From IMG/VR virus record IMGVR_UViG_3300045988_125874: 64,000 bases of DNA; one strand, given 5' to 3'. The stretch comes from a virus. The notes beneath the pieces were generated by a model, which saw only the letters and a program-made list of their open reading frames with translations, did not search any database and was not told the DNA's origin. Each line of letters opens with the position of its first letter. Within the stretch, counting starts at the first letter, position 1. A program made the position numbers and the translations under genes. This document shows, in pieces, positions 3,001 to 54,374 of the stretch.

Positions 3001-5148
3001 CTTATTGTAGATGAAATCAGCATCCATCTCACAATCGTAGGTGGACGGGTCAATCATGGATTTCTTTACGTATTCCTTTGCCTTTTTGAGTAGATTCTGC
3101 TCTGCGTCCGGCAACATCTGTTCGGAGATGTATGCGGTATCAAAGCCGTAAAGGATATATGTGTCTGCGGGGACTTCTTCACCGTCCTCCATGTGTGCGG
3201 TTTGCGGATAAAGAACATCATCCGGAAGAAAGCGACCGTAATCCTCATTGCGGACAATTTCGAAGGTTGTTCCGGTGTTATCGCTTTCTACAATATTGAT
3301 AGCAAAGTCCATCCCGGCAAGCTTGCCAGTTTGGAATATCATGTGAAGTTCCTCACCATCCAGCCTAAAATCTTCTGTAAAGTTCTTCAGTCCCGTATCT
3401 TTGAAATTATAGATCCGATATTCCTTATCGTTATCGTCTACCTTGTCATCGTGGATGACACTGGATATTGTGCCCTTGTATTGGGGATATTCATCCTCAA
3501 ATATAACGATCTCTTCGATTGCCTCCTCTTCCGGCATTTCCACGTTACCCGGATCATTATAGCGTTCATCTCCGATGTTGATACGTTCACCAGTCGGGTT
3601 GTATTTATAAGCATCTACATAAGAAATGCCCTCCGGGAGCATAAGACGTTTCTGAACAACTCCGTTAAGGGTCATTTTCTTGTCATCCTTACTGAAGTAG
3701 TTATCGGGGACTTTACCGCTTATGATGTTGTTAATGGTGTACCGATTACCTAAAGAGGCGGTTACACCTTCCGGTAACTGGATAATGTTTGCTGCGTCAC
3801 CGGTTAAAAGGTCGGGATTGTAAACAGCAGCAAAAGTCTGTCCGGCATTTGCACCGGAAAGGAATGTTACGGAAGTCGTTGCAGAAGAACCGCCATACAC
3901 GTTAATATCGTATGTTACATACGCCTGAAAAGTCGATAACAGCTCGGAAGAAGCTGGAGCTGGTACATGAACGTATACCCTTACTTTTAAATCAGAACTG
4001 TTTTTGCCGATAACCAACGTGTCGGGAACCTGTATTTTAGACACAATCTCATATTGTTGATTTTGGGCTAATGAAACGGTCTGATTACCAATAATCACCT
4101 CTTTTGATTCCCCGGAAACATTATAGATATATGACGCCTTCAATATATAATCTCCTGCCGGTAGAAAAGCACGGTTCCCTATTTGCGGAACGGCTGTTGA
4201 TATATTGATTGAAATTCCTCCCGAAACAACTTTATAAGAACCACCCTTGGCTGATGAAGCTAAAGTCTTATCAAGCGTCCATTCTGTATAAGAGGGAGTA
4301 AAAGAACCGCTGCCTTCGTTGCTACTAGCGGTATAGTCTTCCTTATACGTAACTCGTGACGGAAAGTAGTTTATTTTGAGCGGTCTTGACGTATCGGATA
4401 TATTACGTCCATTAACCTCTTTTACGTCGAATATCAAATCTTTCCGGTAGCTGGAAGGAATGTTGCGGGTGGAGCCGAAAGCGTAGATACGGGTCGCATA
4501 AGTGGTCTGGCTGTCGCTGCGTGTCATGCTGTTGACATTCACATTTTCTGTGTCTGTCAAATCACCGGCTTTAAAATCAACAGGAGAACTATATTCACAA
4601 CGCCCGAAGCAAATCTTATGATTCTCTATCCACCATTCACACTCCCAAGTCTCCGCCATCTGTGTGAGAGCGTCGATCAGATTTACGTTATCGTAGGAAA
4701 CGAGCTTGGAAGTGTTTTCTACTGTGCTGTCAATGTCCCAAGTAAAATCCAGATCCCTGAATTTATATCCAAGAGCTTTCAGGTTATCCAGAAAAACATT
4801 TAAATGCTTGTCAAGGGTAGCGGTAAGATTCCATGCGGCTTCGCGTCCGGTGGTTTCCGGTGTATAGAAGAACTTCTTGTTCTTCCATTTCCAGTAATAA
4901 GCATCAAGGCGGAGTTCGTAGTCGTATGCACCTGTAGTTGTATTGTAGGTAGGCTTATACAAGTCTACTAACTCGAATATTCCCAACTCATTGTCTACAT
5001 AGTCGCCTAGTTTGAAATAAACTGGATTAGAAAGGCTAAATAGCAAAGTGATATAATCTTCCTGCATCAAAAGGAAATGTCTTTTCGAACCCTCATTGAT
5101 AGGAGTCGAAAAGCGAATGTTGCCGGATATGTCTTTGATGTCTATCAT
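1..5148 (-). CDS. Giant tail-associated/tail fiber protein with collagen-like tracts (>=1716 aa, C-terminus beyond window edge)
   Basis: Absent from the ORF track because it has no in-window stop. Manual translation from the ATG at 5148 ([20 protein letters not shown]...) stays open in one frame down to nt 1; frame spot-checked at 8 positions. It lies directly downstream of the TMP and Dit-like genes. Contains G-X-Y tracts and two W..Y..(D/E)V..NG..W.C-type (CBM5/12-like) motifs. Confidence 0.85.
739..1701 (-). repeat. Five collagen-like G-X-Y tracts interleaved with four ~50-aa SY[FL]H[IV]KYS...W..[FI][EK]G modules (coding repeat inside the tail fiber)
   Basis: Translated tracts include [106 protein letters not shown] and [13 protein letters not shown]. 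Confidence 0.85.
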
Positions 5149-10021: not shown

Positions 10022-10052
10022 TTTGTTTGCATTGATGTATTAAATATATTTG
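10022..10052 (+). promoter_or_regulatory. Bacteroides-type promoter (TTTG ... TATATTTG) for the plus-strand moron
   Basis: TATATTTG at 10045-10052 and TTTG motifs at 10022-10029, about 28 nt upstream of the ATG at 10080. Confidence 0.5.
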
Positions 10053-10079
10053 CACATATACAACAATATAAATAGAGTA

Positions 10080-11204
10080 ATGGATTTTAAAGACAAAATC
10101 ATGCAGCTATCTGACAATATAAAGAAACAGAAAGATAGGATAGCTACAGAGGAAGCGACAAAAAATGCTTTCATTATGCCGATGATAGCTGCTTTAGACT
10201 ACGATGTTTTTAACCCTTTTGAGGTTGTGCCTGAAATGGATTGCGACTTAGTAAAGAAGAAAGGGGAGAAGATAGATTATGCTATAATGAAGGATGAAAA
10301 TCCGATTCTTCTTATTGAGTGCAAACATTGTAAACAAGATTTAAACTTGCATGATACTCAATTACAAAAGTATTTTGTCGCTTCTAACGCACGTTTTGGA
10401 GTGCTTACTAATGGTATAGAATATCGTTTTTATACTGATCTGGAAAAGGTAAACATTATGGATGAGAAACCTTTTCTTGTTGTGAATATGCTGGAGCTTT
10501 CGGACGCAGATATAGAACAGTTGAAGAAGTTTCACAAATCTTATTACAATGAAAACGATATTTTAAGTACTGCGAACAAACTTAAATACACGACAGAAAT
10601 AAAGACAATCTTGAATAGTGAATTTGTTTCACCGTCATCAGATTTTGTGAAATTCTTTGCTAAACAGGTATACACAACAGGGCAAATAACCCAGAAAGTT
10701 GTTGAGATGTTCACGCCACTTGTGAAGAAATCAATGTCTAGTGTTGTCAATGACATAATATCTGACAGGCTTAATACAGCTATGAAGAACGATGAACAGG
10801 CTGATGATGAAGTTTTCGAAGAGGAAAGTTTGCCAGATTCCCCCCGACAAGATATAGGCGATAAACTCCCAGAAGGAGTTGTGCACATGGACAAGGACTC
10901 CGGTATTATAACTACACAGGAAGAATTGGACGCCTACAATATTGTGAGGAGTATCTTAAGAAAAAGTATAGATGCCGCACGTATAACTTATAAAGACTAT
11001 AAAACATATTTCGTTGTTAATCTCGATAGCAGCGAATGGTTCTGGATATGCCGCATTTCCATTGGTGCAAGAAAGAAACGAATTGGGATACCAGTAGACA
11101 GGTACAAAAGCTGCGACTGGATTCAAATTGATAGCATAGATGACATATTCAAATATGCGGATAGACTTGAAGAATCACTTAAAATGGCAATAGAAAAGTT
11201 GTGA
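10080..11204 (+). CDS. HsdR N-terminal-like (PD-(D/E)xK) restriction-endonuclease-fold protein, stand-alone
   Basis: N-terminus TEEATKNAFIMPMIAALDYDVFNPFEVVPE...KIDYAIMKDENPILLIECK...QLQKYF...FGVLTNGIEYRFYTD matches the HSDR_N_2 pattern. ATG at 10080 is preferred over the track's TTG at 10050. Confidence 0.7.
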   Translation: MDFKDKIMQLSDNIKKQKDRIATEEATKNAFIMPMIAALDYDVFNPFEVVPEMDCDLVKKKGEKIDYAIMKDENPILLIECKHCKQDLNLHDTQLQKYFVASNARFGVLTNGIEYRFYTDLEKVNIMDEKPFLVVNMLELSDADIEQLKKFHKSYYNENDILSTANKLKYTTEIKTILNSEFVSPSSDFVKFFAKQVYTTGQITQKVVEMFTPLVKKSMSSVVNDIISDRLNTAMKNDEQADDEVFEEESLPDSPRQDIGDKLPEGVVHMDKDSGIITTQEELDAYNIVRSILRKSIDAARITYKDYKTYFVVNLDSSEWFWICRISIGARKKRIGIPVDRYKSCDWIQIDSIDDIFKYADRLEESLKMAIEKL

Positions 11205-25020: not shown

Positions 25021-26532
25021 CTACAAAAAATCTTTGAGCAACTCTTCATCACTAATAAAGTTGTAATCTCTAGGATAAAACGTATTCGCTAATGCGTCCA
25101 TATAGTCAGGAGAACGTTTGATACGTTTCTTGACATCTTCTTTAGGCTCAATGATAATCTTTCCATTACTAAGGAATTTCCATTTGGTTTCGGTAGCTTC
25201 CTCCATTAGTTGATCGCAGGGTGGGAGAGCAGCTCCAAAACCATTTTTAGGATTGAGCCAGTCACGTAAAGCCCAATATAGGTATGCTCTCATATTGGCA
25301 AATTCATATTCGCCAGTAATATCGTGTAAGCCATCTGCACCTTCGGAATATTTACAAGAAAAAGCATTCCTACACTCTTCTTCTAGTAGCCTGGAATATA
25401 CTCCAGCTCCTTCACCAATAGTATCAATAAACGCTTTTGCTCCTTTCTTCTTCAGGTAGGGAATCGTCATACCTACTACGTGCATGTGATCCGCACGTCC
25501 GGCAGATTGATGAACTTCAAATTGAGAAACGTAGTTACCGTATCGCGGACAAAGCACACTATTATCGCGTCCCATACCGGCAACGTCAACACCTAGCTTA
25601 CAAGATTTGGCTGGGATGAAACCGCTTGCCTGTAATTCCTGCCAATTCCTGTTTGCTATTTCTATCCATTCATAAGGAATAAGCACATCTTCAGAAACTT
25701 TCGGGAACATACCAAGTACCTTGACGCGAAACAAATCGTTAGGCCGGTATAGCTTACCTTCCCAATTGAAATCGCCTTCTCCCTCGTTGAAATCTGTTCG
25801 CTGAATGGGGGAGCACCAATTTATCACCTTGTCCTTAACCCATTCATAATCCACTTGACCGGGTATTACTATTTGCTTCTTTACTACATTTTCTGCATTT
25901 AGAGAGCTAAGTCTGAATTTTGCAAAACGGTCAGACTTCATGGCACGAGCTGCGTAACCAGTAGTAACATTAGGATTGAACACTATGAGAAAGCGAGAAT
26001 TACCCTGTAAGTTACCCTCAATAGCGTTGTAAGTCGCTTCTGATATACCGGAAGCTTCAGTAACAACAAACATAGTATTTACAGCGTGGAAACCAGACCA
26101 AGCTTCCGTATTGTCGTCACCAGCTTTAAACCCTGTTAGGAACCACTCTTCGTAATCAGTTTTAATGCCGGAAGACAATAAGCGTCCGGGCAAGAACCCT
26201 GCATTTCTAAATAAGCGGGATATTTCAGGTATCATGATATTTTGAACCTGACGGGCTGTAGGAGCCGTCATGGCAATCTTGGTATTCTTGACTAACTTAC
26301 CTTCTTTCCAACGTGGAGTAAGATACATAAAACACATAGATGCACAAGCCGCAATATAATCCTTTCCCCTTGCCGTGCCTGACGCTACAGCAGTCATTGG
26401 ATTATGCTGAACGGATTGAAGAATGGCTTGTTGCTCTTTGTCTAACCTTGAATGAAGAACATCATGAGCGAATTTGCACCAATCCTCCCGCCATGCTTTC
26501 ATGTATCTTATAGACTTGTCATCTTTGCTCAT
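25021..26532 (-). CDS. Terminase large subunit
   Basis: 503 aa; follows the small-terminase-like HTH gene with an ATGA overlap. Confidence 0.8.
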   Translation of the reverse strand: MSKDDKSIRYMKAWREDWCKFAHDVLHSRLDKEQQAILQSVQHNPMTAVASGTARGKDYIAACASMCFMYLTPRWKEGKLVKNTKIAMTAPTARQVQNIMIPEISRLFRNAGFLPGRLLSSGIKTDYEEWFLTGFKAGDDNTEAWSGFHAVNTMFVVTEASGISEATYNAIEGNLQGNSRFLIVFNPNVTTGYAARAMKSDRFAKFRLSSLNAENVVKKQIVIPGQVDYEWVKDKVINWCSPIQRTDFNEGEGDFNWEGKLYRPNDLFRVKVLGMFPKVSEDVLIPYEWIEIANRNWQELQASGFIPAKSCKLGVDVAGMGRDNSVLCPRYGNYVSQFEVHQSAGRADHMHVVGMTIPYLKKKGAKAFIDTIGEGAGVYSRLLEEECRNAFSCKYSEGADGLHDITGEYEFANMRAYLYWALRDWLNPKNGFGAALPPCDQLMEEATETKWKFLSNGKIIIEPKEDVKKRIKRSPDYMDALANTFYPRDYNFISDEELLKDFL

Positions 26533-26894
26533 TCTTCATCGTCTGGCAATTCTTGCATTAATTTCTCAAATGGATTAATATTCAAATCTTGCTCTACTTT
26601 TTCAACGTAACCGCGATGCTTCATTTTAGTCTTACTTAACCAAATAAGCATGGTGTTATCTTGTTCCGTCAAAGCTTTAGCAAACATTGTCGTTTCTAGC
26701 TTATCATAGAAACTTTCTTCTACTTCTTTCCATTTTTCGGCAAAATCTGGATCATTCGATTTCCATTTATAAGCAATGGAGCGTGAGATTTCTACAGCTT
26801 CACAAGCTGCGGTAACATTCAGCATCCTTGCTTCCAATGCTTTTAAAAACTTAGCTTTCTTTTGCCTTGTATTAAGCCTGTACTTCTGTGCCAT
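26529..26894 (-). CDS. Terminase small subunit (HTH)
   Basis: KAKFLKALEARMLNVTAACEAVEISRSIAYKWKSNDPDFAEKW is a typical TerS HTH. ATG at 26894 is preferred. Confidence 0.7.
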   Translation of the reverse strand: MAQKYRLNTRQKKAKFLKALEARMLNVTAACEAVEISRSIAYKWKSNDPDFAEKWKEVEESFYDKLETTMFAKALTEQDNTMLIWLSKTKMKHRGYVEKVEQDLNINPFEKLMQELPDDEE

Positions 26895-27582
26895 CTTTAC
26901 TTCCCTCCAATACATTATTCACAATTTCCAACATTTTGCATATACTCAAAGCCTGTGCTTTGATTTTGTATTTCGCCTGAACTTTTGCGGATACTTCATT
27001 TAATCGATACATTGTTTCCATGTCCAATAAAGTAAGGTTGCCAAGTTCTTTTTCTGAATAGCAATCCAATGTTTCCATTAATTTGTCAAATGAGACTTTC
27101 TGTGTATCTACAAACATAAGAGTTACTGGAACAATTTCATTATTCGGCATTTCAACTGTATAGTTGATGTCTTTAACGCTTTCTAGTACTTCATTACTGA
27201 TATGCGCATACTCTTTCAGTGCGACATCCGTTATTTCATCAAGAAGCTGTTTTATTATCTCTTGATCATCTTGACCGTTTATCGAATTTGCGCTTAACTG
27301 AATAGCCCGTATTTCATCATTGGAAATATCTTTTTCATTAATATACATAATATGACATGATGTCAAACCAGCCATATTTGCCGCTTGTATTCTATGGTTC
27401 CCAGAAACAACAGTATAAGTTCCGTTGTCATGTTCAACACAAAATGGGACGCTGCTTAACTGGCCATCTCTACGAATATTATTCACGAGTTGGTTAAACA
27501 TGGATTGCTCCATAAATCTTGCATTCTTCTTTATCAACTTGATAGAAGAAAGCGGAACTTCTCTTATTTGAAACTGCTTCAT
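26872..27582 (-). CDS. ParB N-terminal domain protein
   Basis: VPLSSIKL...RRDGQLSSVPFCVEHDNGTYTVVSGNHRIQAA (ParBc motif GxxR / GNHR). ATG at 27582 removes the 128-nt overlap with the HNH gene. Confidence 0.7.
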   Translation of the reverse strand: MKQFQIREVPLSSIKLIKKNARFMEQSMFNQLVNNIRRDGQLSSVPFCVEHDNGTYTVVSGNHRIQAANMAGLTSCHIMYINEKDISNDEIRAIQLSANSINGQDDQEIIKQLLDEITDVALKEYAHISNEVLESVKDINYTVEMPNNEIVPVTLMFVDTQKVSFDKLMETLDCYSEKELGNLTLLDMETMYRLNEVSAKVQAKYKIKAQALSICKMLEIVNNVLEGSKDGTEVQA

Positions 27583-27586
27583 ATTT

Positions 27587-28330
27587 TTATTCTTTAAATT
27601 TCCAAATAAATCCTCCTGCTGTATGGTATCTTGGTCTTTTCCTACAGCACATACCAATATTGGCACTACATACTCCTGTTTTTCTTGATGCGTCCATAAT
27701 AGAATTATATTCATTCAATAAATCACCATTAGAATTATATTGAAGAACCCTACGTACTTTTAGCTCTATCTTTATCTTCTTGGGAAATTCTTCTGATATT
27801 TTGCGACACCAATAGAAACTACCTGCATGGTACTGCTTTCCATTTATACATTGATTTATAGAAGTGTTTAGTACTCCTGTTATTCTTTCGGCTTCTGCAC
27901 CAGAGTTATACTCTTTTAAGAAATTACCATCCAAATCATATTGTAAAACCGGAATAGAACAAATTTCTTTTGTCTTTATATTTCTATTTCCATATTGGCA
28001 ATTATACTTATGTGTACAAAATTCCAAATTATCGACTGTATTATTATTTTTACATTCATCCTTATGATTGACTTCTGTAAGATTTAAAGGATTATCTAAA
28101 AAAGTTTCAGCTATTACTTTATGTACATAAAAACGCTTGACTACATTATTCTTGCATAAACACAGGAATAGGTATCCTTTTTTATTATCACGAGGTAGCA
28201 ATATTTTACCGCTATAGAATCTTCTTCCACCTTTGTATGGGACAACCCTATCTAAGGAGCGTATTCTACCTAAAGACGATGCTTGATATAAACCTTCGTA
28301 CCCCTTAATATTTTTCCAAATTTCATCCAT
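27587..28330 (-). CDS. HNH homing endonuclease (NUMOD4 + HNH + two IENR1-like repeats)
   Basis: IWKNIKGYEGLYQASSLGRIRS (NUMOD4); VNHKDECKNNNTVDNLEFCTHKYN (HNH); two repeats with the AGSFYW / AGGFIW endings. Confidence 0.8.
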   Translation of the reverse strand: MDEIWKNIKGYEGLYQASSLGRIRSLDRVVPYKGGRRFYSGKILLPRDNKKGYLFLCLCKNNVVKRFYVHKVIAETFLDNPLNLTEVNHKDECKNNNTVDNLEFCTHKYNCQYGNRNIKTKEICSIPVLQYDLDGNFLKEYNSGAEAERITGVLNTSINQCINGKQYHAGSFYWCRKISEEFPKKIKIELKVRRVLQYNSNGDLLNEYNSIMDASRKTGVCSANIGMCCRKRPRYHTAGGFIWKFKE

Positions 28331-28334
28331 ACAT

Positions 28335-30422
28335 TTATTCCTTTCTCGGCTCATCACCGTATTTTTCTACAAATGCTTTTAAAATATCATCTAAGTTGCC
28401 ACGAATACCTGCATCTTGTATGTAATGGAGTTTACCAACGCAACGTTCATGTAATTTGAATACACCACGATATTTCATACTTACAGGTTTATCGGTGAAC
28501 ACGGAAGTAGCAATAACACCACATTGATGTTTATATCTTATATCCAGTTCTGATTTAAATTCTGATGAAAGAACGCCCATTATTAGCAATCGGCTCAACT
28601 TAGGCAGAGGGTGGTCTATGACAAAATCCGATTTCATCCAAACTGCATCCATGCCGTATTTGCTGACCTTCAGGAAGTCAAACATACAAGCTCCGAACAC
28701 GTAATCATCCAAGAACCACAAATAACAGAACGGAGCTGATCCGAGTATGATGCCTTTCTTCAAGTAAATCATGCGCAGATAATCAATTTCTGCCATAGAA
28801 GCACGAACAAACCGGAGTTTGCTATTATTTGTAAGTACGTAATCGTCTGGCAACCGTTTATATTTTAGAGGGATGATAGTCCGCTTGTTAAAACTGCTGT
28901 CTCCACTTTCTACCACATTAGACCAAATATATGTGCGTTGGTCTTTGAATACCTCTCTTCTGCCCATAAATCCATGCTGCGAGAGAGCCATGTAATTAAC
29001 TTGTTCTTCATCTATTTCTGCATATTTCGTTTTAGTTCGTTCTTGAGATCCAAAATCATCCAATAAGAAACGCTGTAATGCGTTGCTTGTGGCTTTCATA
29101 CCGGAATGAAATTCATTCTGATAGATCAATATGTCATTCTCTTTGCAGTTAAGAATTGCATCTGATATATCAGCACAATAAAATACTTCAATAGACTTAC
29201 TTTTAAGGCTGTCTACGAGCTTTTGGTAACGTTCCGTATACTTCTTATGGTAATGCTCCAATTTTGCCATAAAATCGTCATAAAGCGACTTATGGTAAAT
29301 ATCTTGTGAGTTCTTATGCTTCTTGATGGCATTGAACAGATGGATAGTGGCAATAATTTCAGCCGGACTTTCAGACTTGATATTCAGAAACTCATATTCA
29401 TCATTAAAACGCAGTTCTTTTATCTCTCCCTTGATTGCCTTATACATCATGTAGATAAAATACTCCTTTGTATACACCTTAATCTCACGGTTGGTAAGTA
29501 TTTGCTCTATATCCATATAGTATGAGTTTACCACATGAGCAATATCAAATTTGGCCGCTTCTTTCTTGATGAAGGAAAGCATACGATTAGTTTTCTTAAA
29601 CATGGAGCCTACTATCGTAACATTGTCCGAGTGTTCTGCTGCCCAAAGTAACGGTTTATGTCTTTGGGGAACCTTGGAATAGTCTATATGGAATGTCTCA
29701 AGACATTTGTCAATAGTGGTGAGTTGCTTATACTCTTCTATGTCTTCATGTAGGTAGGCATATTCTACAAATGAATACATGAATTTGATTGTTTCCAGCA
29801 CCTTGTCGAAGTCCCATGAACTATTGAAGATACGGAATTCTGCTGTTCCTATCTTTTCAATAGAACATAAGTTGAGCCAGTACCGGATATGTCCTCTATC
29901 TGACCCATTACTAAAAACTTTCAGTAAATTCTCAATATTATCTGCTTCAAGAACTCGTTTTACAACATCCCAAGGTGGACTGGGTACGAGATATTTTGTT
30001 TCCCACCACTCGGCAATGTCAAATATTCGTTTGATTGGATAAGCGGTGTAGTAGGAGAGGGCAAACAAACGTTTGATAACATTCAAGTCCATATCTTTGA
30101 TGTATAGATGTGCATCAAAACCTTCATTCCACATGAGATAACTTCCTGCATCTCTCATGGTCTGAATAAAATTCTTCAACTCCTGCAAATCTTCTATACA
30201 ATAATGGTATGGGCGTGTGTTTATTTCCCCGCCAAATTGACCGTGATGCGTAACTGCCGATCCATCCGAGTTATTCATCATGGTTAGCTTGTTATCCGTC
30301 CACTTGTAACCCGATGGAAGAGGAATGTGCTCTTTATCACCATCAGCGAACTCCAGTTCCATGCCAAATGTGCGATTGGCTATATAGTCAATCCACGGTT
30401 TATCTATATTCGTGTTCTGCAT
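28335..30422 (-). CDS. Amidoligase (Amidoligase_2 / GS-like) N-terminal domain protein with a ~450-aa uncharacterised C-terminal region
   Basis: FGMELEFADG...DGSAVTHHGQFGGEINTRPY...GFDAHLYI...IGTAEFRIFNSSWDFDKVLETIKFMYSFVEYA follows the putative-amidoligase pattern (G.E.EF, DGS...GE..., H.H, GT.EFR). Confidence 0.65.
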   Translation of the reverse strand: MQNTNIDKPWIDYIANRTFGMELEFADGDKEHIPLPSGYKWTDNKLTMMNNSDGSAVTHHGQFGGEINTRPYHYCIEDLQELKNFIQTMRDAGSYLMWNEGFDAHLYIKDMDLNVIKRLFALSYYTAYPIKRIFDIAEWWETKYLVPSPPWDVVKRVLEADNIENLLKVFSNGSDRGHIRYWLNLCSIEKIGTAEFRIFNSSWDFDKVLETIKFMYSFVEYAYLHEDIEEYKQLTTIDKCLETFHIDYSKVPQRHKPLLWAAEHSDNVTIVGSMFKKTNRMLSFIKKEAAKFDIAHVVNSYYMDIEQILTNREIKVYTKEYFIYMMYKAIKGEIKELRFNDEYEFLNIKSESPAEIIATIHLFNAIKKHKNSQDIYHKSLYDDFMAKLEHYHKKYTERYQKLVDSLKSKSIEVFYCADISDAILNCKENDILIYQNEFHSGMKATSNALQRFLLDDFGSQERTKTKYAEIDEEQVNYMALSQHGFMGRREVFKDQRTYIWSNVVESGDSSFNKRTIIPLKYKRLPDDYVLTNNSKLRFVRASMAEIDYLRMIYLKKGIILGSAPFCYLWFLDDYVFGACMFDFLKVSKYGMDAVWMKSDFVIDHPLPKLSRLLIMGVLSSEFKSELDIRYKHQCGVIATSVFTDKPVSMKYRGVFKLHERCVGKLHYIQDAGIRGNLDDILKAFVEKYGDEPRKE

Positions 30423-31278
30423 ATCTCAACTTGACTAATGATTTATAATCAGGGACAAAACGAACCACATCACCAATGTGATAATCCGAAACATGGTCAC
30501 ATTGCATTATTGTATATTCGCTGGAGCTATCTACATACTTCAAATTGGTATAATAGGGAATTCTGCATTTAGCCATGTCCGCCATTGAATAACCGCAATC
30601 GAGAATGAGTTGATTACGCTCTGGATAGATGCCTATTATTCTTGTTTGTAGTTCTATCCCATTAAAGCCTTTTTTCTCTTCATTATTGCAATATGGAATA
30701 GTGCCAAACAGCATATATTCTCCTATTCGCACATCACTTATGAAGTTTGGAAGTTTGTCATACTGTCCGAGCCAAAAACTTCCTCCTAAACTGATGGATT
30801 CAATATATCCTTTTAGGTTGTCCCAGATGTCGTATAATCGCGACATTGGCGGGTATTTGTCATTGAGGCAACCGGAAGTAATCATACCGTATATATGAGC
30901 ATCTGAAAGCATCCTTATTTCGTTAGCTAGTTTGCTTGCTTCATAAATGCTTAAACCTTCTCTGTTATCGTAAGCGTCAATTGGAATGTAGTAGTTGTGT
31001 ATTCCTTGGCAACCCTCTCCATTAATAGTGAGATATTTCCAAGAGTCAGCAAATGATGTTACTACTGCACCTATATTATCTTTTGTCGCTTTCCCAATAG
31101 AATAACATACGCTATCTTTCAAATGTAACCCGAAAATCTTATTTCTTATTTTATCCGCTATATGCTCATGAATATCTTCATAGAAGTCCTTAAACATTAA
31201 TGAAATGGGAACATTAACAAACGATTGCGCCTTTTCAATGTTCTCTATTATATTCTTGGTATAGACAATAACTTTCAT
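30400..31278 (-). CDS. Fold-type III PLP enzyme, alanine-racemase-N/YhfX-like (predicted amino-acid racemase family)
   Basis: IPIDAYDNREGLSIYEASKLANEIRMLSDAHIYGMITSGC...ISLGGSFWLG...VRIGEYMLFG...LILDCGYSMADM resembles Ala_racemase_N/COG3457 motifs. Confidence 0.5.
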   Translation of the reverse strand: MKVIVYTKNIIENIEKAQSFVNVPISLMFKDFYEDIHEHIADKIRNKIFGLHLKDSVCYSIGKATKDNIGAVVTSFADSWKYLTINGEGCQGIHNYYIPIDAYDNREGLSIYEASKLANEIRMLSDAHIYGMITSGCLNDKYPPMSRLYDIWDNLKGYIESISLGGSFWLGQYDKLPNFISDVRIGEYMLFGTIPYCNNEEKKGFNGIELQTRIIGIYPERNQLILDCGYSMADMAKCRIPYYTNLKYVDSSSEYTIMQCDHVSDYHIGDVVRFVPDYKSLVKLRYAEHEYR

Positions 31279-32174
31279 AGCTCCCACTTTAAGATTAAAC
31301 GTTCAATCCCTTTGTATTTGGTATCACGTTTGAACGAGAACCCGGCATTGGTAAAACTCTTGATACTTGCTTCATTTTTGGGTGAGGTCATGGCAAATAC
31401 CTCTTGTGCACCGTTTGAAACCAATTTTGCAAGATTAGCATTGAGTAGAATGTACTGAAAGCTATTACCCCTATAATCTGAACGAACGAAACATTTATCT
31501 ACGTAGGCAGTACCGTATTCAGTGAAATATGCAAGCGAATAAGCAACCAGCTTATCATTTGTCAATAATCCGTAACTGCAACCAGATTGCAAGCACTTGA
31601 CTATATCTTCCGGTTCCGAAGCGAAACACATATCAGGATCAGAGAGCAACTTTTGCTCAATTTCTTCTATGGTAGTAATGTCAGACATAGATAAAGCTTT
31701 CACTTGCATATTGTATTCTATGCTTCCTTTATGCGTCGGGAACAATGGTTCGTAACGGTCAATCCATGCTTTAGAAAGGAATGTGTCTATATCGACTTTA
31801 GGCAATAATGCTTTTCTATAATTGTCGAAAATGTCTAGTACAAATTCTTTATGCTTAGTAAGTTGCTCATTTTTCAACGGACATTTACTGCTACGGAAAA
31901 CAAGACCTTTTTTTACCGACTTTACCCACAAAGGATAAGTTCTACACATGATAGGTTTGTAGCCATTATCACATGATTTACAGTCTTTAGCGATACATTT
32001 AATCTTTTTACCGCCAAAGTAATCATCATCTATAATCTGTAAATGGGAGATTTCTTTTTCATACCCGTCAAGTTCATGGGGGAGAATTACAATATGTCCG
32101 TCCGATCCGAACGAACAACACTTCCAACCGCAGCCGGAGTTTTCACATGCTCTTATTAGTCCTTTTTCGTCCAT
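31275..32174 (-). CDS. YkgJ-type Cys-cluster domain fused to a GNAT acetyltransferase domain
   Basis: N-terminus: CENSGCGWKCCSF...KPIMCRTYPLW (CxxCxxCC ... CR.YP). C-terminus: FVRSDYRGNSFQYILLNANL...AMTSPKNEASIKSFTNAGF (GNAT motif A region). Confidence 0.6.
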   Translation of the reverse strand: MDEKGLIRACENSGCGWKCCSFGSDGHIVILPHELDGYEKEISHLQIIDDDYFGGKKIKCIAKDCKSCDNGYKPIMCRTYPLWVKSVKKGLVFRSSKCPLKNEQLTKHKEFVLDIFDNYRKALLPKVDIDTFLSKAWIDRYEPLFPTHKGSIEYNMQVKALSMSDITTIEEIEQKLLSDPDMCFASEPEDIVKCLQSGCSYGLLTNDKLVAYSLAYFTEYGTAYVDKCFVRSDYRGNSFQYILLNANLAKLVSNGAQEVFAMTSPKNEASIKSFTNAGFSFKRDTKYKGIERLILKWEL

Positions 32175-32399: not shown

Positions 32400-32586
32400 A
32401 GGGATAAGCAGGATTCGAACCTGCACAAGTATCGTCTGCTTTCTCGTTTTCGTCCGTAGATTGGTTATCCTACGATCTTTAAACTACTCGACCTGTTACT
32501 AACAGCCGGTCTTGATGACATCCATTCTTATGTACACTTGGAACTTCCGTTCATTTAGTCTTAGCTCCCTATGACCATTTTATCCC
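32400..32586 (-). tRNA. Oversize tRNA-like gene (187 nt): perfect acceptor halves and a canonical T-arm, with ~110 nt excess internal sequence
   Basis: 5' GGGATAA (rc of 32580-32586) is fully complementary to 3' TTATCCC, which follows GCAGG-TTCGAAT-CCTGC. The internal region holds several hairpins, including GAAC-GGAA-GTTC. No anticodon could be assigned. Confidence 0.35.
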
Positions 32587-32590
32587 TTAG

Positions 32591-32741
32591 TAGTGGTAGC
32601 AGGATTCGAACCTGCATGATAGGAGTTATTTTGCTGTTACATTTAAAAACAGCCATGCCCGTTTATTTTTACAACCTTAGCCTAGGGTTAACCTATCTAT
32701 AAACATGTCACTTTAGCGTCTACTAATTCCGCCATACCACC
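32591..32741 (-). tRNA. Oversize tRNA-Leu-like gene (151 nt) with ~65-70 nt extra sequence between the D-arm and T-arm
   Basis: The 5' half GGTGGTATGGCGGAATTAGTAGACGC is close to the bacterial tRNA-Leu acceptor/D-arm. The 3' half is GCAGGTTCGAATCCTGC-TACCACT-A (A73). Acceptor 7/7 paired (one G-U). The middle region is 99 nt versus about 33 expected. Confidence 0.45.
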
Positions 32742-32785
32742 AAATTTGCGTGTCTTTCCACGCTGTCAGATTGTTTGCAGTACCA

Positions 32786-32861
32786 ACTAAATGCAAGGAA
32801 TCGAACCTTGTCGCTTACTTTACACAACCTCAATCAACGAGCCGAGTTTAACGGCATTCGA
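32786..32861 (-). tRNA. tRNA-like gene, normal length (~76 nt), imperfect stems, anticodon loop compatible with UGA (Ser)
   Basis: T-arm CAAGG-TTCGATT-CCTTG. D-like hairpin GCCG-TTAAACT-CGGC. Loop (A/G)TTGA(G/T). One acceptor mismatch, and the D hairpin abuts the acceptor strand. Confidence 0.35.
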
Positions 32862-32930
32862 GCGGAAACAGGGAATCGAACCCCACTCTTTGGCTGGAAT
32901 GCCAACGCTCTACCGATGAGCTATTTCCGC
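32861..32930 (-). tRNA. tRNA-like gene, 70 nt, near-canonical cloverleaf but with a 6-nt anticodon loop ATTCCA (UCC-Gly or CCA-Trp)
   Basis: GCGGAAA-TA-GCTC-ATCGGTA-GAGC-G-TTGGC-ATTCCA-GCCAA-AGAG-TGGGG-TTCGATT-CCCTG-TTTCCGC-T. Confidence 0.55.
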
Positions 32931-32990: not shown

Positions 32991-33371
32991 CTATTGACGG
33001 TTGGCTAATAATTCCGGATTGTCATAAATATTACCTGCATATCTAATTCCGAACATATCTATCATTTGTCCTATTGGTTTGTTCCCAAGATTTTGAGACA
33101 GAACTTCTAATAGCACAAAAGAACCGATTTTATCACTATACACTACCTCACATAATACGCCAGCACATTCAACTAAATCATGCTCATATATTTCTTTCCC
33201 GCTCTTGTCACACAAGCCGGTGAACTGCCCAAGAGTATTTTCGTCTATTTTTTCAACGTCATTATCGTGCAACCAAGTTCCATCTCCATCTTGAATAAGC
33301 GTATAAGAATCTCTTATCCATCCCTTACCATCAATGCGCTTCCCTCTAAACTTAATCCTTCTCATACTCAA
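32991..33371 (-). CDS. YopX family protein
   Basis: IKFRGKRIDGKGW...LGQFTGLCDKSGKEIYEHDLV...AGNIYDNPELL is the YopX signature. Confidence 0.8.
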   Translation of the reverse strand: MSMRRIKFRGKRIDGKGWIRDSYTLIQDGDGTWLHDNDVEKIDENTLGQFTGLCDKSGKEIYEHDLVECAGVLCEVVYSDKIGSFVLLEVLSQNLGNKPIGQMIDMFGIRYAGNIYDNPELLANRQ

Positions 33372-33772
33372 AATAAACTTGCTTGTTCGTATTTAGGTTC
33401 CTTTTTCTCAACTACTCCGAACTCTGTTATTTCAATGCCAGTCTTTTCAGTAAGCCATTTTGCCAAAATATGACGATGGCAGAAATCACCCGGTTTTTCG
33501 TAACAGCATAGAGCGACATCTTTACCTTCACTGTGTCGTTGGATAGTTTGAATCAATTCTTGCGGATTGACTTTTGCAAGAACATCATTCAAATACATAC
33601 TCGTGTACTCTTCATAAGTCCATTTGTCATCTAACATATATCTTCTTGGTGCAACCTCTATAATTTGAGGTGCGTTATAAAATTTTGGTCTGCCTAAAGC
33701 GACACATATCATTTTGATGTTCGCTGCTGCCAGTTTTCTGTAATTTCCAAAATATGATGTATAAATCCTCAT
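33368..33772 (-). CDS. DUF488-like protein
   Basis: MRIYTSYFGNYRKL...VALCCYEKPGDFCHRHILAKWL. ATG at 33772 is preferred (the track start would overlap the promoter motif). Confidence 0.5.
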   Translation of the reverse strand: MRIYTSYFGNYRKLAAANIKMICVALGRPKFYNAPQIIEVAPRRYMLDDKWTYEEYTSMYLNDVLAKVNPQELIQTIQRHSEGKDVALCCYEKPGDFCHRHILAKWLTEKTGIEITEFGVVEKKEPKYEQASLF

Positions 33773-33788
33773 TGCTTTAATTTTATGG

Positions 33789-33827
33789 TGTAAAGATACA
33801 AAAAGTGGCGTAAATTCAATCACTTTT
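33789..33827 (-). promoter_or_regulatory. -7 box (TATCTTTACA) plus copy 3 of the 27-bp dyad motif
   Basis: tgtaaagata at 33789-33798; aaaagtggcgtaaattcaatcactttt at 33801-33827. Confidence 0.6.
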
Positions 33828-43005: not shown

Positions 43006-43488
43006 CTAATTGATTCGTATATACTTACCTGCGATATCGCAAGTTCTTAATATATCGGCATTATCTTCGCCGAAAGCGATTAGGATACTTCCGCAACCGG
43101 GCGAATCTCCACGAGTCCCATCAGGTCGGAAGAACCTAATCCGGTTACGTAGAAATTTCATAGCTGTTGCTTTTTCAAAGATGACATCTTGGAACATCTT
43201 ACTATCGCAGCGGTTGAATAGTAGAGCGATGCCGTTACCGTGTTCTGCCAGACGTTTAACGAAACGTTCTATTAGAGGACGGGAGTAAGGTGGATTTAGC
43301 CAAACACGACCTACCCAATCTTTAGTTAATCCGTCATGGTTCTTGTTGTACATTTGTGTAGCTGTTTGCCAAAGCGGTTTAACCGGAGCGCATGGATCTA
43401 AATCGAACTTTCCCAATGCGTCTATAATTTCTTTTGGCGTGTACCATTCATCGGTGGTATTAACCGATTTCTCAAAGGTTGTATTCAT
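43006..43488 (-). CDS. DNA N6-adenine methyltransferase (phage Dam family)
   Basis: TDEWYTPKEIIDALGKFDLDPCAP...DGLTKDWVGRVWLNPPYSRP (NPPY catalytic motif, phage Dam layout). Confidence 0.8.
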   Translation of the reverse strand: MNTTFEKSVNTTDEWYTPKEIIDALGKFDLDPCAPVKPLWQTATQMYNKNHDGLTKDWVGRVWLNPPYSRPLIERFVKRLAEHGNGIALLFNRCDSKMFQDVIFEKATAMKFLRNRIRFFRPDGTRGDSPGCGSILIAFGEDNADILRTCDIAGKYIRIN

Positions 43489-53846: not shown

Positions 53847-54374
53847 ATGACAAAATTTGAACAACAAAAAATCATAGAAATAGTACTTTATATCCTTAAT
53901 AAAACTGGGGGTATGGACTATTATCATTTGTTCAAGATATTATATTTTGCCAATCAACGAAGCTTGGTTGACTGGGGGCAACTGATGATAGCGGATAAAT
54001 TTTGCGCTCTTCCCCATGGACCAGTACCAACAATTTTGTATAGTACAATACAAGGGCAAAAAAGCGTTCTTTCAAAAATGACAGATGATGTTCATGTTGT
54101 AGATTACTATCTATTATCTAAACGTGAACCTGATATGGATTATCTTTCACAATATGATAAAGACACTTTAGATTTATGCATTTCCAAATACGGGAAAATG
54201 AGTTTTAAGGAGTTGGAAAAAACTTCTCATACAACTTGTTGGCAAAAAGCGAGAGACAAAAAGGGAAATCATGTTATTGATCCGGGGGATATTGCCCTTG
54301 ATGGAGGAGCTAATGATGAACTTGTAAAATATATTAATGATTCAATAGCATTTGATGAAACCTTCGGAAATTAA
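53847..54374 (+). CDS. DUF4065 / Panacea-domain antitoxin (SocA/PanA-like)
   Basis: KIIEIVLYILNKTGGMDYYHLFKILYFANQRSLVDWGQLMIADKFCALPHGPVPTILY matches the DUF4065 pattern. Confidence 0.7.
   Translation: MTKFEQQKIIEIVLYILNKTGGMDYYHLFKILYFANQRSLVDWGQLMIADKFCALPHGPVPTILYSTIQGQKSVLSKMTDDVHVVDYYLLSKREPDMDYLSQYDKDTLDLCISKYGKMSFKELEKTSHTTCWQKARDKKGNHVIDPGDIALDGGANDELVKYINDSIAFDETFGN

Follow-up and report, generated by a model that had tools for sequence, protein, structure and literature searches.

A three-gene amidoligase, PLP-enzyme and GNAT cassette is an add-on to a widespread phage module beside the DNA-packaging genes

Why would a phage keep an amidoligase, a PLP enzyme and an acetyltransferase next to its DNA-packaging genes, and on what would they act? 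The genes in question lie in the window, the whole 64,000-nucleotide stretch of viral DNA analysed here. The first-pass annotation had described three overlapping, co-directional genes, treated them as one functional unit, and listed DNA bases, a virion or host protein, and an aminoacyl-tRNA or tRNA as possible targets. The ORF list contains the three genes on the minus strand at 32174..31275 (299 aa), 31287..30400 (295 aa) and 30422..28335 (695 aa), with a 23-nt overlap between the second and the third. The HNH/ParB/terminase neighbourhood was also found as described: an HNH/NUMOD endonuclease gene, a ParB_N gene and the small and large terminase subunit genes follow the 695-aa gene in that order, recognised by Pfam and phrog matches and, for the large terminase, by position, size and homologous gene order. 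At the 5' side, the “tRNA-like array” of the annotation shrank to one true tRNA (Rfam 53 bits), the rest being weaker remnants. The features of the locus are as follows.

33368..33772, minus strand: DUF488 protein (DUF488-N3a subclade), core component (Pfam PF22751 4.8e-10, PF04343 1.4e-5)
32991..33371, minus strand: YopX-family gene between DUF488 and the tRNA (Pfam YopX 1e-14)
32861..32930, minus strand: tRNA of glycine identity, putative glycyl donor (ARAGORN, Rfam)
32400..32830, minus strand: degenerate remnants resembling tRNA (T-arm-like GGTTCGAATCC repeats plus a single tRNA match below threshold)
31725..32174, minus strand: N-terminal Cys-rich domain of the 299-aa protein (about aa 1-150), YkgJ/CxxCxxCC-like, accessory (alignment with a PF03692 protein of locus L007)
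31275..31712, stop codon included, minus strand: acetyl-CoA-type GNAT domain of the 299-aa protein (about aa 155-299), accessory (Pfam Acetyltransf_1)
30400..31287, likely ATG at 31278, minus strand: compact fold-type III PLP enzyme, 295 aa, accessory (AlphaFold, Foldseek, NCBIfam Orr)
29688..30422, minus strand: glutamine-synthetase-like amidoligase domain of the 695-aa protein (about aa 1-245), lineage-specific N-terminal fusion (Pfam Amidoligase_2)
28878..29615, minus strand: Dam-like domain, DNA adenine methylase fold (about aa 270-515; Pfam PF22555, Foldseek)
28335..28865, stop codon included, minus strand: GNAT-phage-like domain (about aa 520-695; Pfam PF22559 7e-26)
27587..28357, minus strand: HNH/NUMOD endonuclease of homing type, separating the core gene from ParB (Pfam NUMOD4, NUMOD1, HNH_3; phrog_59)
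26872..27582, minus strand: ParB-N-domain partner, core component (Pfam ParB_N 5.8e-5; phrog_7405 2e-55)
26529..26915, minus strand: small terminase subunit gene (Pfam GP3_package and HTH matches)
25021..26532, minus strand: large terminase subunit gene (position and size beside the small subunit; gene order of homologous loci)

Three starts were shifted from those in the ORF list. The DUF488 ORF, listed as 33368..33823, likely starts at 33772 because its homologues begin at the MRIYTSYFGN motif, and the ParB ORF, listed as 26872..27714, likely starts at 27582 because its homologues begin at MKQFQIRE. Since homologues of the PLP enzyme begin at M4, its likely start is 31278, which gives an ATGA overlap with the stop codon of the upstream gene. 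The terminase pair (25021..26915, minus strand) marks the position of the locus.

To see which of these genes belong together, we compared 80 genome loci from many phyla, together with isolated Mycobacterium, Gordonia and Faecalibacterium phages. One specific ParB family was encoded directly downstream of the Dam-like/GNAT-phage-like gene in 79 of the 80 loci, and the isolated phages of all three hosts have the same arrangement. DUF488 lay within 6 kb of this core gene in 52/80 loci, usually just upstream, and in the loci checked the genes downstream of the module encoded terminase or portal proteins belonging to several different families. The members of the trio were much more sporadic: the amidoligase was fused to the core gene at 14/80 loci and the PLP and acetyl-CoA GNAT genes were found at 5/80, and the Cys-rich domain was present at a single locus of the 80. 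In sister loci, an opine dehydrogenase and ATP-grasp ligases resembling D-Ala-D-Ala ligase replace the PLP, GNAT and amidoligase extras. The functional unit is thus something other than the trio. DUF488, the Dam-like/GNAT-phage-like protein and ParB form the conserved core, with the Cys domain, the acetyl-CoA GNAT, the PLP enzyme and the amidoligase fusion as accessories of particular lineages, an add-on to a larger, widespread phage module.

Two genes of the window appear to be foreign to this module. The HNH/NUMOD gene is read as a mobile insertion because, across the varied homologous loci inspected, no gene separates the core gene from the ParB gene downstream of it. No YopX gene was called in the module gene order of diverse homologous loci, and for that reason the YopX gene is probably an unrelated insertion as well. 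DUF488 (a match to phrog_2450, annotated “unknown function”) has invariant T22, A58-P59, C107, C115-H-R117 and E134 among eight module homologues, and the ParB of the window shares invariant N-A, S-G-N-H-R and Q-L-S-x-N motifs with its Gordonia phage orthologue.

The 695-aa protein joins an accessory to the core. Its amidoligase assignment was borne out by an Amidoligase_2 match (4.6e-8, 33.7 bits, cut-off 22), by the invariance of E22, E24, E66, H105, R180, E195 and R197, and by structural matches of the model to phage amidoligases in BFVD. The remaining ~450 aa, for which the annotation had advised structure and profile searches, could now be assigned from Pfam, an AlphaFold model and Foldseek to a Dam-like and a GNAT-phage-like domain. 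Searched alone, the Dam-like domain matched DAM-like-phage1 (PF22555) with 28.4 bits (cut-off 27), and Foldseek aligned it with E. coli Dam (2g1p, 4rtn, 2ore; E ~3e-3, 280-300 columns). The Dam-type fold with its helical insert is retained across the whole family. Most members keep motif I (G-x-S-G; VGCSG), the motif II Asp and a PP-aromatic motif IV (F-P-P-[TF]-Y) in which the catalytic D/N is absent. The subfamily of the window has lost both the glycine-rich motif I (VVNSY) and the PP of motif IV (YQNEF), and a base-binding role for its Dam-like domain is therefore an assumption.

In the GNAT-phage-like domain, G577, D599, S648-M-K-Y-R-G653 and Y667 vary little or not at all among 77 family members, and Foldseek matched it to GNATs including Mom of phage Mu (8bv8). 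We propose that the core enzyme uses this domain for catalysis, as a putative acyl- or aminoacyl-transferase. Mom, itself a GNAT, moves glycine from Gly-tRNAGly onto N6-adenine in dsDNA (PMC13219725). The resemblance of the core enzyme to Mom is at the level of fold only: a profile-profile comparison gave a probability of 15%, and the catalytic R111, S124 and R151 of Mom had no counterparts that could be placed in the GNAT-phage-like domain. The module would be similar to Mom in logic (Gly-tRNA to DNA base) but is built from different parts.

Both smaller proteins of the trio are putative accessory tailoring enzymes in our proposal. The fold-type III assignment of the PLP enzyme was confirmed by its AlphaFold model (pLDDT 90.4), which matched D-serine dehydratase, D-threonine aldolase and alanine/lysine racemases (Foldseek E 4e-12 to 1e-8; TM-score 0.7-0.75 on the query), as well as by an NCBIfam Orr match (1.7e-7). 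The PLP-lysine position K33 is invariant across 22+7 homologues, as are R109-E-G, G168-G-S and R187-x-G-E. The first-pass annotation raised a possible D-amino-acid moiety; racemases are among the nearest structural relatives of the enzyme, but so are D-threonine aldolases, which form glycine. The GNAT assignment of the 299-aa protein also held (Acetyltransf_1 6e-7, 30.2 bits, cut-off 20.7; phrog_1249 “acetyltransferase”; CoA-loop motif R-G-N-[GS]), and stand-alone acetyl-CoA GNATs of 125-173 aa occur in L001, L003, L005, L007 and L092. The Cys-rich domain of this protein is YkgJ/CxxCxxCC-like: it aligns with a stand-alone L007 protein annotated PF03692, with which it shares a “KPxxCRxYP” motif, but the cluster reads C-x4-C-x3-CC and a profile search of the domain gave no Pfam CxxCxxCC match (best only DUF3109, E 0.5). 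L005 and L092 encode this domain as a gene of its own, and in L090 it is fused.

A tRNA-Gly gene is a recurring part of the module. The tRNA of the window, the only one detected by ARAGORN in the 64 kb, lies inside the module and folds as a cloverleaf (z-score -3.4). It carries the GlyRS identity elements G1-C72, C2-G71, G3-C70, U73 and C35-C36, all of which are kept in 19/19 aligned tRNAs (the window and 18 module-linked tRNA-Gly), with compensatory changes in 17/22 base pairs; A37 is likewise invariant in all 19. C35 and C36 are identity elements for GlyRS. Glycine types make up 15/17 of the tRNAs found in the 80 loci, and tRNA-Gly(UCC) also occurs in L090 and Mycobacterium phage Jeon, though it may be fairly common across phages generally and many of the Bacteroidota loci share descent. 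In L094 and L096-L104 the tRNA slot lies between DUF488, on its upstream side, and the following gene of the module. Non-canonical anticodon loops were seen in at least five tRNAs (window, L075, L097, L100 and L102), several being enlarged or, as in the window (AUUCCA), of 6 nt, as would suit a donor that takes no part in decoding. Nor is the tRNA obligatory, since none is nearby at 63/66 loci without the amidoligase and in 8/20 amidoligase-fused lineages. In close relatives the glycine-type tRNA is preceded by a tRNA-Phe or tRNA-Cys, and the sub-threshold match in the window, at 32591-32676, scored 23.9 bits in Rfam, below the gathering score.

Phage DNA has more support than the other targets considered earlier, because a Dam-like DNA-methylase fold lies in the previously unassigned part of the 695-aa protein, because the core gene is coupled to one ParB family, because the module occupies the “ParB-terminase locus” (“ParB-Tls locus”) predicted to hold phage DNA-modification genes (PMC4738411), with which its terminase-adjacent position agrees, and because ParB is now known to activate a phage DNA-modifying enzyme, in the ParB-dependent phage T-dioxygenases (PMC13229309). 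No thymidine-hypermodification genes were present among the ORFs scanned. For the chemical steps, the target base and the biological role we infer the following scheme, to which we give about even chances: the module would attach an aminoacyl group to a phage DNA base in a ParB-coupled, Gly-tRNA-dependent reaction and then tailor the glycyl amine, the cassette being the tailoring half of a multi-part DNA-hypermodification module. Host GlyRS would charge the phage tRNA-Gly, which by analogy with Mom is more likely an amino-acid donor than a target. The core enzyme would bind phage DNA, its Dam-like domain presenting a base (most likely adenine N6) to which the GNAT-like domain would transfer the glycyl group, as in Mom. 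ParB, in a role modelled on that in the T-dioxygenase systems, would load on phage DNA and recruit or activate the core enzyme. In the lineage of the window, the free glycyl amine would then be elaborated: the fused amidoligase may form an ATP-dependent amide bond to it or activate a carboxylate for it, the PLP enzyme, akin to D-Thr aldolases and racemases, may work on the alpha-carbon of the amino-acid moiety, and the acetyl-CoA GNAT may cap the amine. The purpose would be to shield packaged DNA from host nucleases. Each accessory enzyme seen across lineages, whether amidoligase, PLP enzyme, acetyl-CoA GNAT, opine dehydrogenase or ATP-grasp ligase, has a primary amine or an amino acid as its substrate, and installation of an aminoacyl group by the core would lead one to expect this.

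It could instead be argued that the acceptor is a protein, although we consider this unlikely. The GNAT-like domain would then be a Fem- or L/F-transferase-type aminoacyl-tRNA transferase that builds, with the amidoligase, a glycine-containing tag on ParB, terminase, or a virion or host protein, the Dam-like domain serving only for DNA binding or as a scaffold. Amidoligase_2 enzymes were reportedly predicted as peptide-tag makers in the first place, by Iyer and colleagues in 2009. The ATP-grasp and opine dehydrogenase genes of sister loci indicate peptide or amino-acid chemistry, and the methyltransferase motifs are degenerate in the subfamily of the window. However, the Dam-type fold is family-wide and most members keep its motifs, the strict link to a DNA-clamp-type ParB and the packaging locus indicates DNA, and co-variation with the module singles out no protein as a candidate acceptor, even though the usual acceptors of GNAT-fold aminoacyl-tRNA transferases are peptides, proteins or lipids (PMC13219725). 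Another candidate substrate is the phage tRNA-Gly itself, for example through acylation of N6 of A37, which would alter decoding or protect the tRNA against anticodon nucleases of the host. The invariance of C35-C36-A37 and the adenine-N6 specificity of characterised relatives of the Dam-like fold are in line with this. Charging alone explains the constancy of C35 and C36, however, given their identity role, and the loops of several of these tRNAs should not decode, so a decoding-related modification would be purposeless. Most core loci have no tRNA at all, and the ParB partner and terminase position would be left unexplained; tRNA modification is therefore very unlikely, despite the tRNA-modifying GNATs (TmcA and the TacT/AtaT toxins) cited in PMC13219725.

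More doubtful than protein tagging, if less so than tRNA modification, is a DNA acylation that needs no tRNA, a scheme close to that of the first-pass annotation. Here the amidoligase of the window lineage would activate a free amino acid as an acyl-phosphate and join it directly to the amine of a base bound in the Dam-like domain, the PLP enzyme and acetyl-CoA GNAT would prepare the amino acid, and the tRNA would be an ordinary decoding tRNA nearby by chance. Glutamine-synthetase-like enzymes use ATP for carboxylate activation, the catalytic residues are intact, and the amidoligase lies in cis with the Dam-like domain. It could thus supply the activated carboxylate alone and make the tRNA unnecessary, which counts against our proposal, as do the amidoligase-fused lineages that have no nearby tRNA. 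This scheme does not explain the core enzyme at the 66/80 loci without amidoligase, the strong excess of glycine tRNAs beside DUF488, or their non-canonical anticodon loops. The least probable reading has the module produce a diffusible metabolite, derived from an amino acid or a nucleoside, for example for anti-defence or signalling, with an adenosine-containing ligand in the Dam-like pocket. The retention of the cofactor-binding motif I and of the Asp of motif II without the motif IV catalytic residue in most family members would suit it, and the accessory enzymes are akin to a small natural-product cluster; but an obligate ParB pairing and a fixed terminase-side position across unrelated phage types are unexpected for a metabolite pathway, and no transporter or resistance gene is associated with the module.

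The tRNA slot is also used outside the glycine type: in Faecalibacterium phage FP_Brigit it holds a tRNA-Lys, the only tRNA of that genome.

The first-pass annotation had described a cassette of three overlapping, co-directional genes at 28335-32174, and we found minus-strand open reading frames at exactly those coordinates. They are given here with two other genes of the window:

32174..31275, minus strand: 299-aa open reading frame, Cys domain plus GNAT, overlapping its neighbor
31287..30400, minus strand: 295-aa open reading frame, PLP enzyme
30422..28335, minus strand: 695-aa open reading frame with amidoligase, Dam-like and GNAT-phage-like domains
28357..27587, minus strand: HNH/NUMOD homing-type endonuclease, between the gene for the core enzyme (the Dam-like/GNAT-phage-like part of the 695-aa protein) and its ParB partner
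43006..43488, minus strand: ordinary small Dam methyltransferase (Pfam PF05869, 1.4e-14), distinct from the Dam-like domain of the 695-aa protein

Upstream of the cassette are a DUF488 gene, a YopX gene and a single tRNA; downstream, the endonuclease gene is followed by genes for a ParB-N-domain protein and for both terminase subunits, small before large. With RecT/YqaJ, AntA and the ordinary Dam methylase among its products, the window resembles a tailed phage of the temperate type. Proteins 100% identical to the 695-aa protein are present on IMG/VR contigs, relatives are encoded on 191 such contigs, and named homologues come from Parabacteroides and Paraprevotella; blastn with the cassette gave no match among INPHARED phages. 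A promoter and terminator scan of the window returned sites no more numerous than in shuffled sequence.

The 695-aa protein (model pLDDT 87.6) begins with the amidoligase that had been predicted. Residues 1-245 correspond to Amidoligase_2 (PF12224, 33.7 bits against a cut-off of 22, match at residues 64-218) and resemble phage enzymes of this family (phrog_2443) by Pfam, structure and conserved residues, although the phage amidoligases matched in BFVD (E 1e-9 to 1e-5) are mostly 250-520 aa long. The residues E22, E24, E66, H105, R180, E195 and R197 do not vary among 24 sequences, and by analogy with glutamine-synthetase-like enzymes we take them to be catalytic.

The remainder of this protein, unassigned in the first-pass annotation, was resolved by profile and structure searches into two domains. 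Residues ~270-515 form a Dam-like domain (PF22555, 28.4 bits against 27) whose overall fold is that of E. coli and T4 Dam: Foldseek matched 2g1p, 4rtn, 4rtm, 2ore and 4rtq over 274-304 columns at E ~3e-3, E. coli Dam being among the matches. A sequence-level search of the PDB gave no Dam match for this domain. In most members of the family a glycine-rich motif I (VGCSG) and the Asp of motif II are retained, together with F-P-P-[TF]-Y, in which F replaces the catalytic D/N, whereas the amidoligase-fused subfamily of the window has lost both motif I and the PP (VVNSY, YQNEF). We ruled out an active Dam methyltransferase because neither the AdoMet-binding motif I (FxGxG) nor the catalytic motif IV (D/N/S)PP(Y/F), DPPY in Dam, is present in the window protein. 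Judged by these motifs the domain is not a methyltransferase, and candidate roles are a pocket for a base or a pocket for the aminoacyl-adenosine end of a tRNA.

Residues ~520-695 form a GNAT-phage-like domain (PF22559, 7e-26) with residues that are absolutely conserved family-wide (G577, D599, S648-M-K-Y-R-G653 and Y667). Foldseek matches were GNATs, including Mu Mom (8bv8_B, E 2.4e-3), with many other GNATs scoring equally well or better, and in BFVD the Salmonella phage Mom S4TTR0 was matched at 3.1e-4. With hhalign, Mom was matched at a probability of 0.1% for a single sequence and 15% (E 1.7e-3) for profile against profile; of the features sought, which included the catalytic R111, S124 and R151, only the Y-x-K-K / Y59-S-R-R stretch was aligned. 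These comparisons are not significant, and we therefore do not claim membership of the Mom family; at the level of sequence the core enzyme appears not to belong to it.

The 295-aa protein had been called a fold-type III PLP enzyme, and its fold bears this out. The model (pLDDT 90.4) has a TIM barrel plus a beta domain, and Foldseek matched it to D-serine dehydratase, D-threonine aldolase, D-threo-3-hydroxyaspartate dehydratase and alanine/lysine racemases, with E down to 4e-12 and TM-scores of 0.72-0.75 on the query. K33 (LMFKDFYE) is invariant in 22 plus 7 further homologues, and so are the motifs that bind phosphate and pyridine; judged by where it lies and by its motif, K33 is probably the PLP-binding lysine. 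On the other hand, no curated Pfam or NCBIfam profile reached threshold on this protein (PF14031, 20 bits against 22; NCBIfam Orr, 30.6 bits against 480). The model identifies it as a shortened, divergent fold-type III PLP enzyme. Searches of PDB sequences with this protein, the 695-aa protein, DUF488 and the Dam-like-domain profile returned nothing useful, and structure comparison was informative where these searches were not.

The 299-aa protein had been described as a YkgJ-type CxxCxxCC domain fused to a GNAT. The C-terminal GNAT was readily recognized (PF00583, 30.2 bits against 20.7) and carries the CoA-loop motif R-G-N-[GS]-F. A Pfam search with the N-terminal 151 aa gave no match, PF03692 included, and the Cys cluster reads C-x4-C-x3-CC rather than CxxCxxCC. 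This domain, which is a separate gene in some related loci, can however be aligned to a stand-alone PF03692 protein of one homologous locus (L007), KPxxCRxYP being common to both, so that the description "YkgJ-like" is plausible but not proven.

In diverse homologues (28-67% identity) the gene order is DUF488, small GNAT, PLP-like, large protein, ParB, small and large terminase subunits, and the order from DUF488 to terminase recurs in phages of differing portal and terminase families. In the diverse homologous loci examined, nothing separates the core gene from the ParB gene downstream of it, so the endonuclease at 27587-28357 appears to be a mobile element inserted into this tightly linked pair. 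A scan of one genome per species gave 80 loci. These span Bacteroidota, Clostridia, Gastranaerophilales, several classes of Proteobacteria, Nitrospirota, Bacillus, Leptospira, Planctomycetota, Dependentiae and one Methanobacterium; a related enterobacterial locus found no match in E. coli genomes. When these loci were searched with HMMs built from our own alignments, the components were distributed as follows:

GNAT-phage-like gene: 79 of 80 loci
One specific ParB family, immediately downstream and on the same strand: 79 of 80 loci, the remaining locus being cut by a contig end
DUF488 within 6 kb: 52 of 80 loci
Amidoligase fusion: 14 of 80 loci
PLP enzyme plus acetyl-CoA GNAT: 5 of 80 loci
Cys domain: 1 of 80 loci

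The trio was thus rejected as a self-contained three-gene pathway, since its accessory genes are present in just 5-14 of the 80 loci; the conserved unit is larger and mostly different. Its core comprises DUF488, the Dam-like/GNAT-phage-like enzyme and ParB, and a tRNA and accessory genes complete the module. Amidoligase loci lacking the PLP enzyme and GNAT have an opine (octopine/nopaline-type) dehydrogenase in that slot (1e-25 to 1e-29), encoded between DUF488/tRNA and the large gene in L097, L098, L100, L102 and L103. One opine-dehydrogenase locus adds two ATP-grasp D-Ala-D-Ala-ligase-like genes after ParB, and these observations extend to L097 8742-10424. In this variability the module is like a small biosynthetic cluster.

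The ParB partner motifs N-A, S-G-N-H-R and Q-L-S-x-N are invariant from Bacteroidales to Gordonia phages, and in the loci checked ParB is followed by GpA-type or T4-type large terminases or by portal proteins. The core is also present in isolated phages, namely Gordonia Sting, Clawz, Soos and Jollymon, eight Mycobacterium phages including Jeon, and Faecalibacterium FP_Brigit. A single-sequence search of 1.84 billion representatives with the C-terminal 426 aa of the 695-aa protein gave 444 clusters at E ≤ 1e-3, in two main length classes of ~430-460 aa and ~670-700 aa.

In PHROGs the three core families (phrog_7858, phrog_7405 and phrog_2450) are annotated as "unknown function". PADLOC returned no match for the core enzyme, ParB, PLP enzyme or GNAT, and weak matches for DUF488 (33368-33772) to the candidate defense families PDC-M19A and PDC-M45 (1e-8 to 5e-3). 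In the literature we found no mention of PF22559, no DUF488 in such a context and no description of or function for this gene combination. An independent link between DUF488 and ParB comes from a published survey in which archaeal ParB-CTPase fusions to DUF488-HTH bind CTP. A prophage survey labels proteins like the 695-aa protein only "amidoligase enzyme". In Clostridium clostridioforme prophages, phrog_2443 "amidoligase enzyme" genes adjoin gamma-glutamyl cyclotransferase genes (PMC11318856), and the C-terminus of these phrog_2443 proteins matches the GNAT-phage-like domain; this hints at gamma-glutamyl chemistry in Firmicutes versions of the module.

The sole tRNA that ARAGORN detected in the window (32930..32861) sits between DUF488 and the cassette, scores 53 bits with Rfam and folds into a cloverleaf with a 6-nt anticodon loop, AUUCCA. 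Glycine-type tRNAs, mostly tRNA-Gly(UCC), were found between DUF488 and the module gene that follows it in L094 and L096-L104, one Clostridia genome included; L098 has an additional CCC species, and in L090 the tRNA is just upstream of DUF488. A tRNA-Gly is also present within ~4 kb in Bacillus, Beijerinckiaceae and Armatimonadota loci, and Mycobacterium phage Jeon has one immediately next to its core gene. Across the 80 genome loci, 15 of 17 tRNAs are of glycine type, and the other two are one Ser beside a Gly and one Arg ~2.5 kb upstream of the core gene. FP_Brigit (MG711465; L174 4747-4823) has a tRNA-Lys(CUU) in the slot between DUF488 and the core gene, the only tRNA of its 61.7-kb genome; ~2 kb upstream there is an S-adenosylmethionine synthetase gene. 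The tRNA is not universal: none was nearby in 63 of 66 loci without amidoligase and in 8 of 20 amidoligase-fused lineages.

G1-C72, C2-G71, G3-C70, U73 and C35-C36-A37 are present in each of the 19 aligned tRNAs and presumably include the identity set of bacterial GlyRS. Compensatory changes in 17 of 22 helix pairs indicate that the module tRNAs are functional RNAs. Five of them, from the window, L075, L097, L100 and L102, have 6-nt or enlarged anticodon loops. The loops of L097, L100 and L102 are non-canonical, those of L100 (1238-1310) and L102 (4841-4911) being second and third kinds besides that of the window; ARAGORN reports "anticodon ac" for both, and both retain the glycine acceptor-stem identity and C35-C36-A37. 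We ruled out a prophage attachment-site remnant, as these tRNAs are internal to complete phage genomes, beside DUF488. At 32400-32830 on the minus strand are several T-arm-like repeats (GGTTCGAATCC) and a sub-threshold tRNA match (32591-32676); in some of these the two acceptor halves are separated by very long inserts. This region may be a decaying tRNA array, because close relatives have intact tRNA-Phe/tRNA-Cys upstream of the glycine-type tRNA.

Several known systems come close to the module. Mu Mom, a GNAT-fold enzyme, transfers glycine from Gly-tRNAGly to adenine N6 in double-stranded DNA, after which the adduct rearranges; acylation of the adenine amine requires an activated carboxylate (PMC13219725, where FemXAB-type glycyl transferases are cited as well). 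The module resembles Mom in its phage-encoded GNAT-fold domain, its proposed post-replicative DNA target and its genomic tie to glycine tRNA. Whereas Mom acts alone and uses a host tRNA, the core enzyme belongs to PF22559 and is fused to a Dam-like domain and, in the window lineage, to an amidoligase; gene linkage ties it to a ParB partner and usually to DUF488, and the module comes with tailoring enzymes and often encodes a tRNA itself, in some cases one whose anticodon loop is non-decoding.

Some enzymes that modify DNA bases need a phage ParB homologue as activator, in clusters often with terminases (PMC13229309), and enzymes for modifying phage DNA around packaging have been predicted at the "ParB-terminase large subunit locus" (PMC4738411). 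As in those loci and in ParB-dependent T-dioxygenases, the window has a ParB-N gene directly beside a gene for a putative nucleic-acid-modifying enzyme and the terminase genes. Unlike them, the enzyme is a Dam-like/GNAT fusion rather than a methyltransferase or TET/JBP dioxygenase, and the ParB is a distinct orthologous family (phrog_7405, with S-G-N-H-R) on which the enzyme, judging by gene linkage, would depend.

In thymidine hypermodification clusters a DNA base receives an amino acid, which a PLP enzyme and a GNAT go on to tailor (PMC8989533, PMC5889632), a likeness to the scheme proposed here. Such clusters encode the 5-HMUDK kinase, amino-acid:DNA transferases, PLP enzymes and an acetyltransferase, with amidoligase genes noted nearby. 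Among 29 window ORFs scanned with Pfam there was no dUMP hydroxymethylase, TET/JBP, 5-HMUDK or aGPT-Pplase/AADT, and a cluster of this kind was rejected since its defining genes are absent from the ORFs scanned. A Dam-like domain that presents a base suggests a purine or exocyclic-amine target, not thymine C5.

From Mom, the ParB-activated enzymes and the ParB-terminase locus prediction we propose the following mechanism. The Dam-like domain would present a DNA base, the GNAT-like domain would move an aminoacyl group onto it from a charged tRNA, ParB would target or activate the core enzyme on phage DNA, and lineage-specific enzymes would then work on the free amine of the adduct. The accessory enzymes seen (glutamine-synthetase-like amidoligase, ATP-grasp ligase, acetyl-CoA GNAT, opine dehydrogenase and PLP enzyme) all act on a primary amine or an amino acid; D-threonine aldolases and strombine-type opine dehydrogenases act specifically on glycine. 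The scheme reuses known logic: tRNA-dependent DNA aminoacylation of the Mom type, ParB-coupled modification, and hypermodification with tailoring. We put the chance that a phage DNA base undergoes tRNA-dependent, ParB-coupled aminoacylation at around even.

There are rival explanations. FemXAB-type peptidoglycan glycyl transferases work with a dedicated non-proteinogenic tRNA-Gly, and the module likewise pairs a GNAT-fold enzyme with a specialized tRNA-Gly apparently freed from decoding. This would fit a Fem-like transferase tagging proteins or peptides; however, the target of FemXAB is a peptidoglycan precursor, the module has no sequence relationship to these enzymes, and its context favors DNA. 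The tRNA could itself be the substrate. Acylation by the amidoligase without any tRNA comes close to the scheme of the first-pass annotation, and a further rival is synthesis of a small molecule. None of these rivals accounts jointly for the Dam-type fold, the obligate ParB, the position at the packaging locus and the excess of glycine tRNAs. Phage DNA, named earlier among several possible targets, is the best supported of them, but the proposal has to be revised as to the functional unit, the key domains and what the tRNA does.

A broader version of DNA-base aminoacylation is more tentative, and we hold it to be possible but somewhat improbable. The modules would represent a widespread, unrecognized class of hypermodification in which methyltransferase-derived and GNAT-like domains aminoacylate DNA from aminoacyl-tRNA (usually Gly; Lys in one Faecalibacterium phage), at the packaging locus and controlled by ParB. 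A dedicated, non-decoding tRNA would often serve, and in Bacteroidota phages the amidoligase, the PLP enzyme, the GNAT, opine dehydrogenase and ATP-grasp enzymes would extend the adduct in a peptide-like or opine-like manner. Both the family of DNA adducts and this non-translational role of phage tRNAs would be new. If the proposal is true, aminoacylation of DNA from tRNA, so far the property of one enzyme (Mom), would become a broad modular system, present in abundant Bacteroidales phages of the human gut and in prophages from many bacterial phyla. Some phage tRNAs, usually credited to codon usage, would be amino-acid donors, including those with crippled anticodon loops, and the module would be a second, independent example of ParB-coupled DNA modification at a packaging locus. 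The chemically complex adducts predicted would be relevant to restriction evasion, sequencing errors in phage DNA and tools for site-directed aminoacylation. The core is available in cultured phages: Mycobacterium Jeon, which combines it with tRNA-Gly and has both ParB and DUF488, Gordonia Sting and Clawz, which have no tRNA, and Faecalibacterium FP_Brigit, with tRNA-Lys.

Elsewhere in the window, two opposite-strand genes are possible defense or moron cargo: one at 10050-11204 (plus strand), whose product carries HSDR_N domains (type I restriction), and one at 53847-54374 (plus strand), encoding a SocA/Panacea antitoxin-domain protein. Positions 1-4000 have a GC content of 43-44%, compared with 34-39% elsewhere in the window, and may be host flank or a different module.
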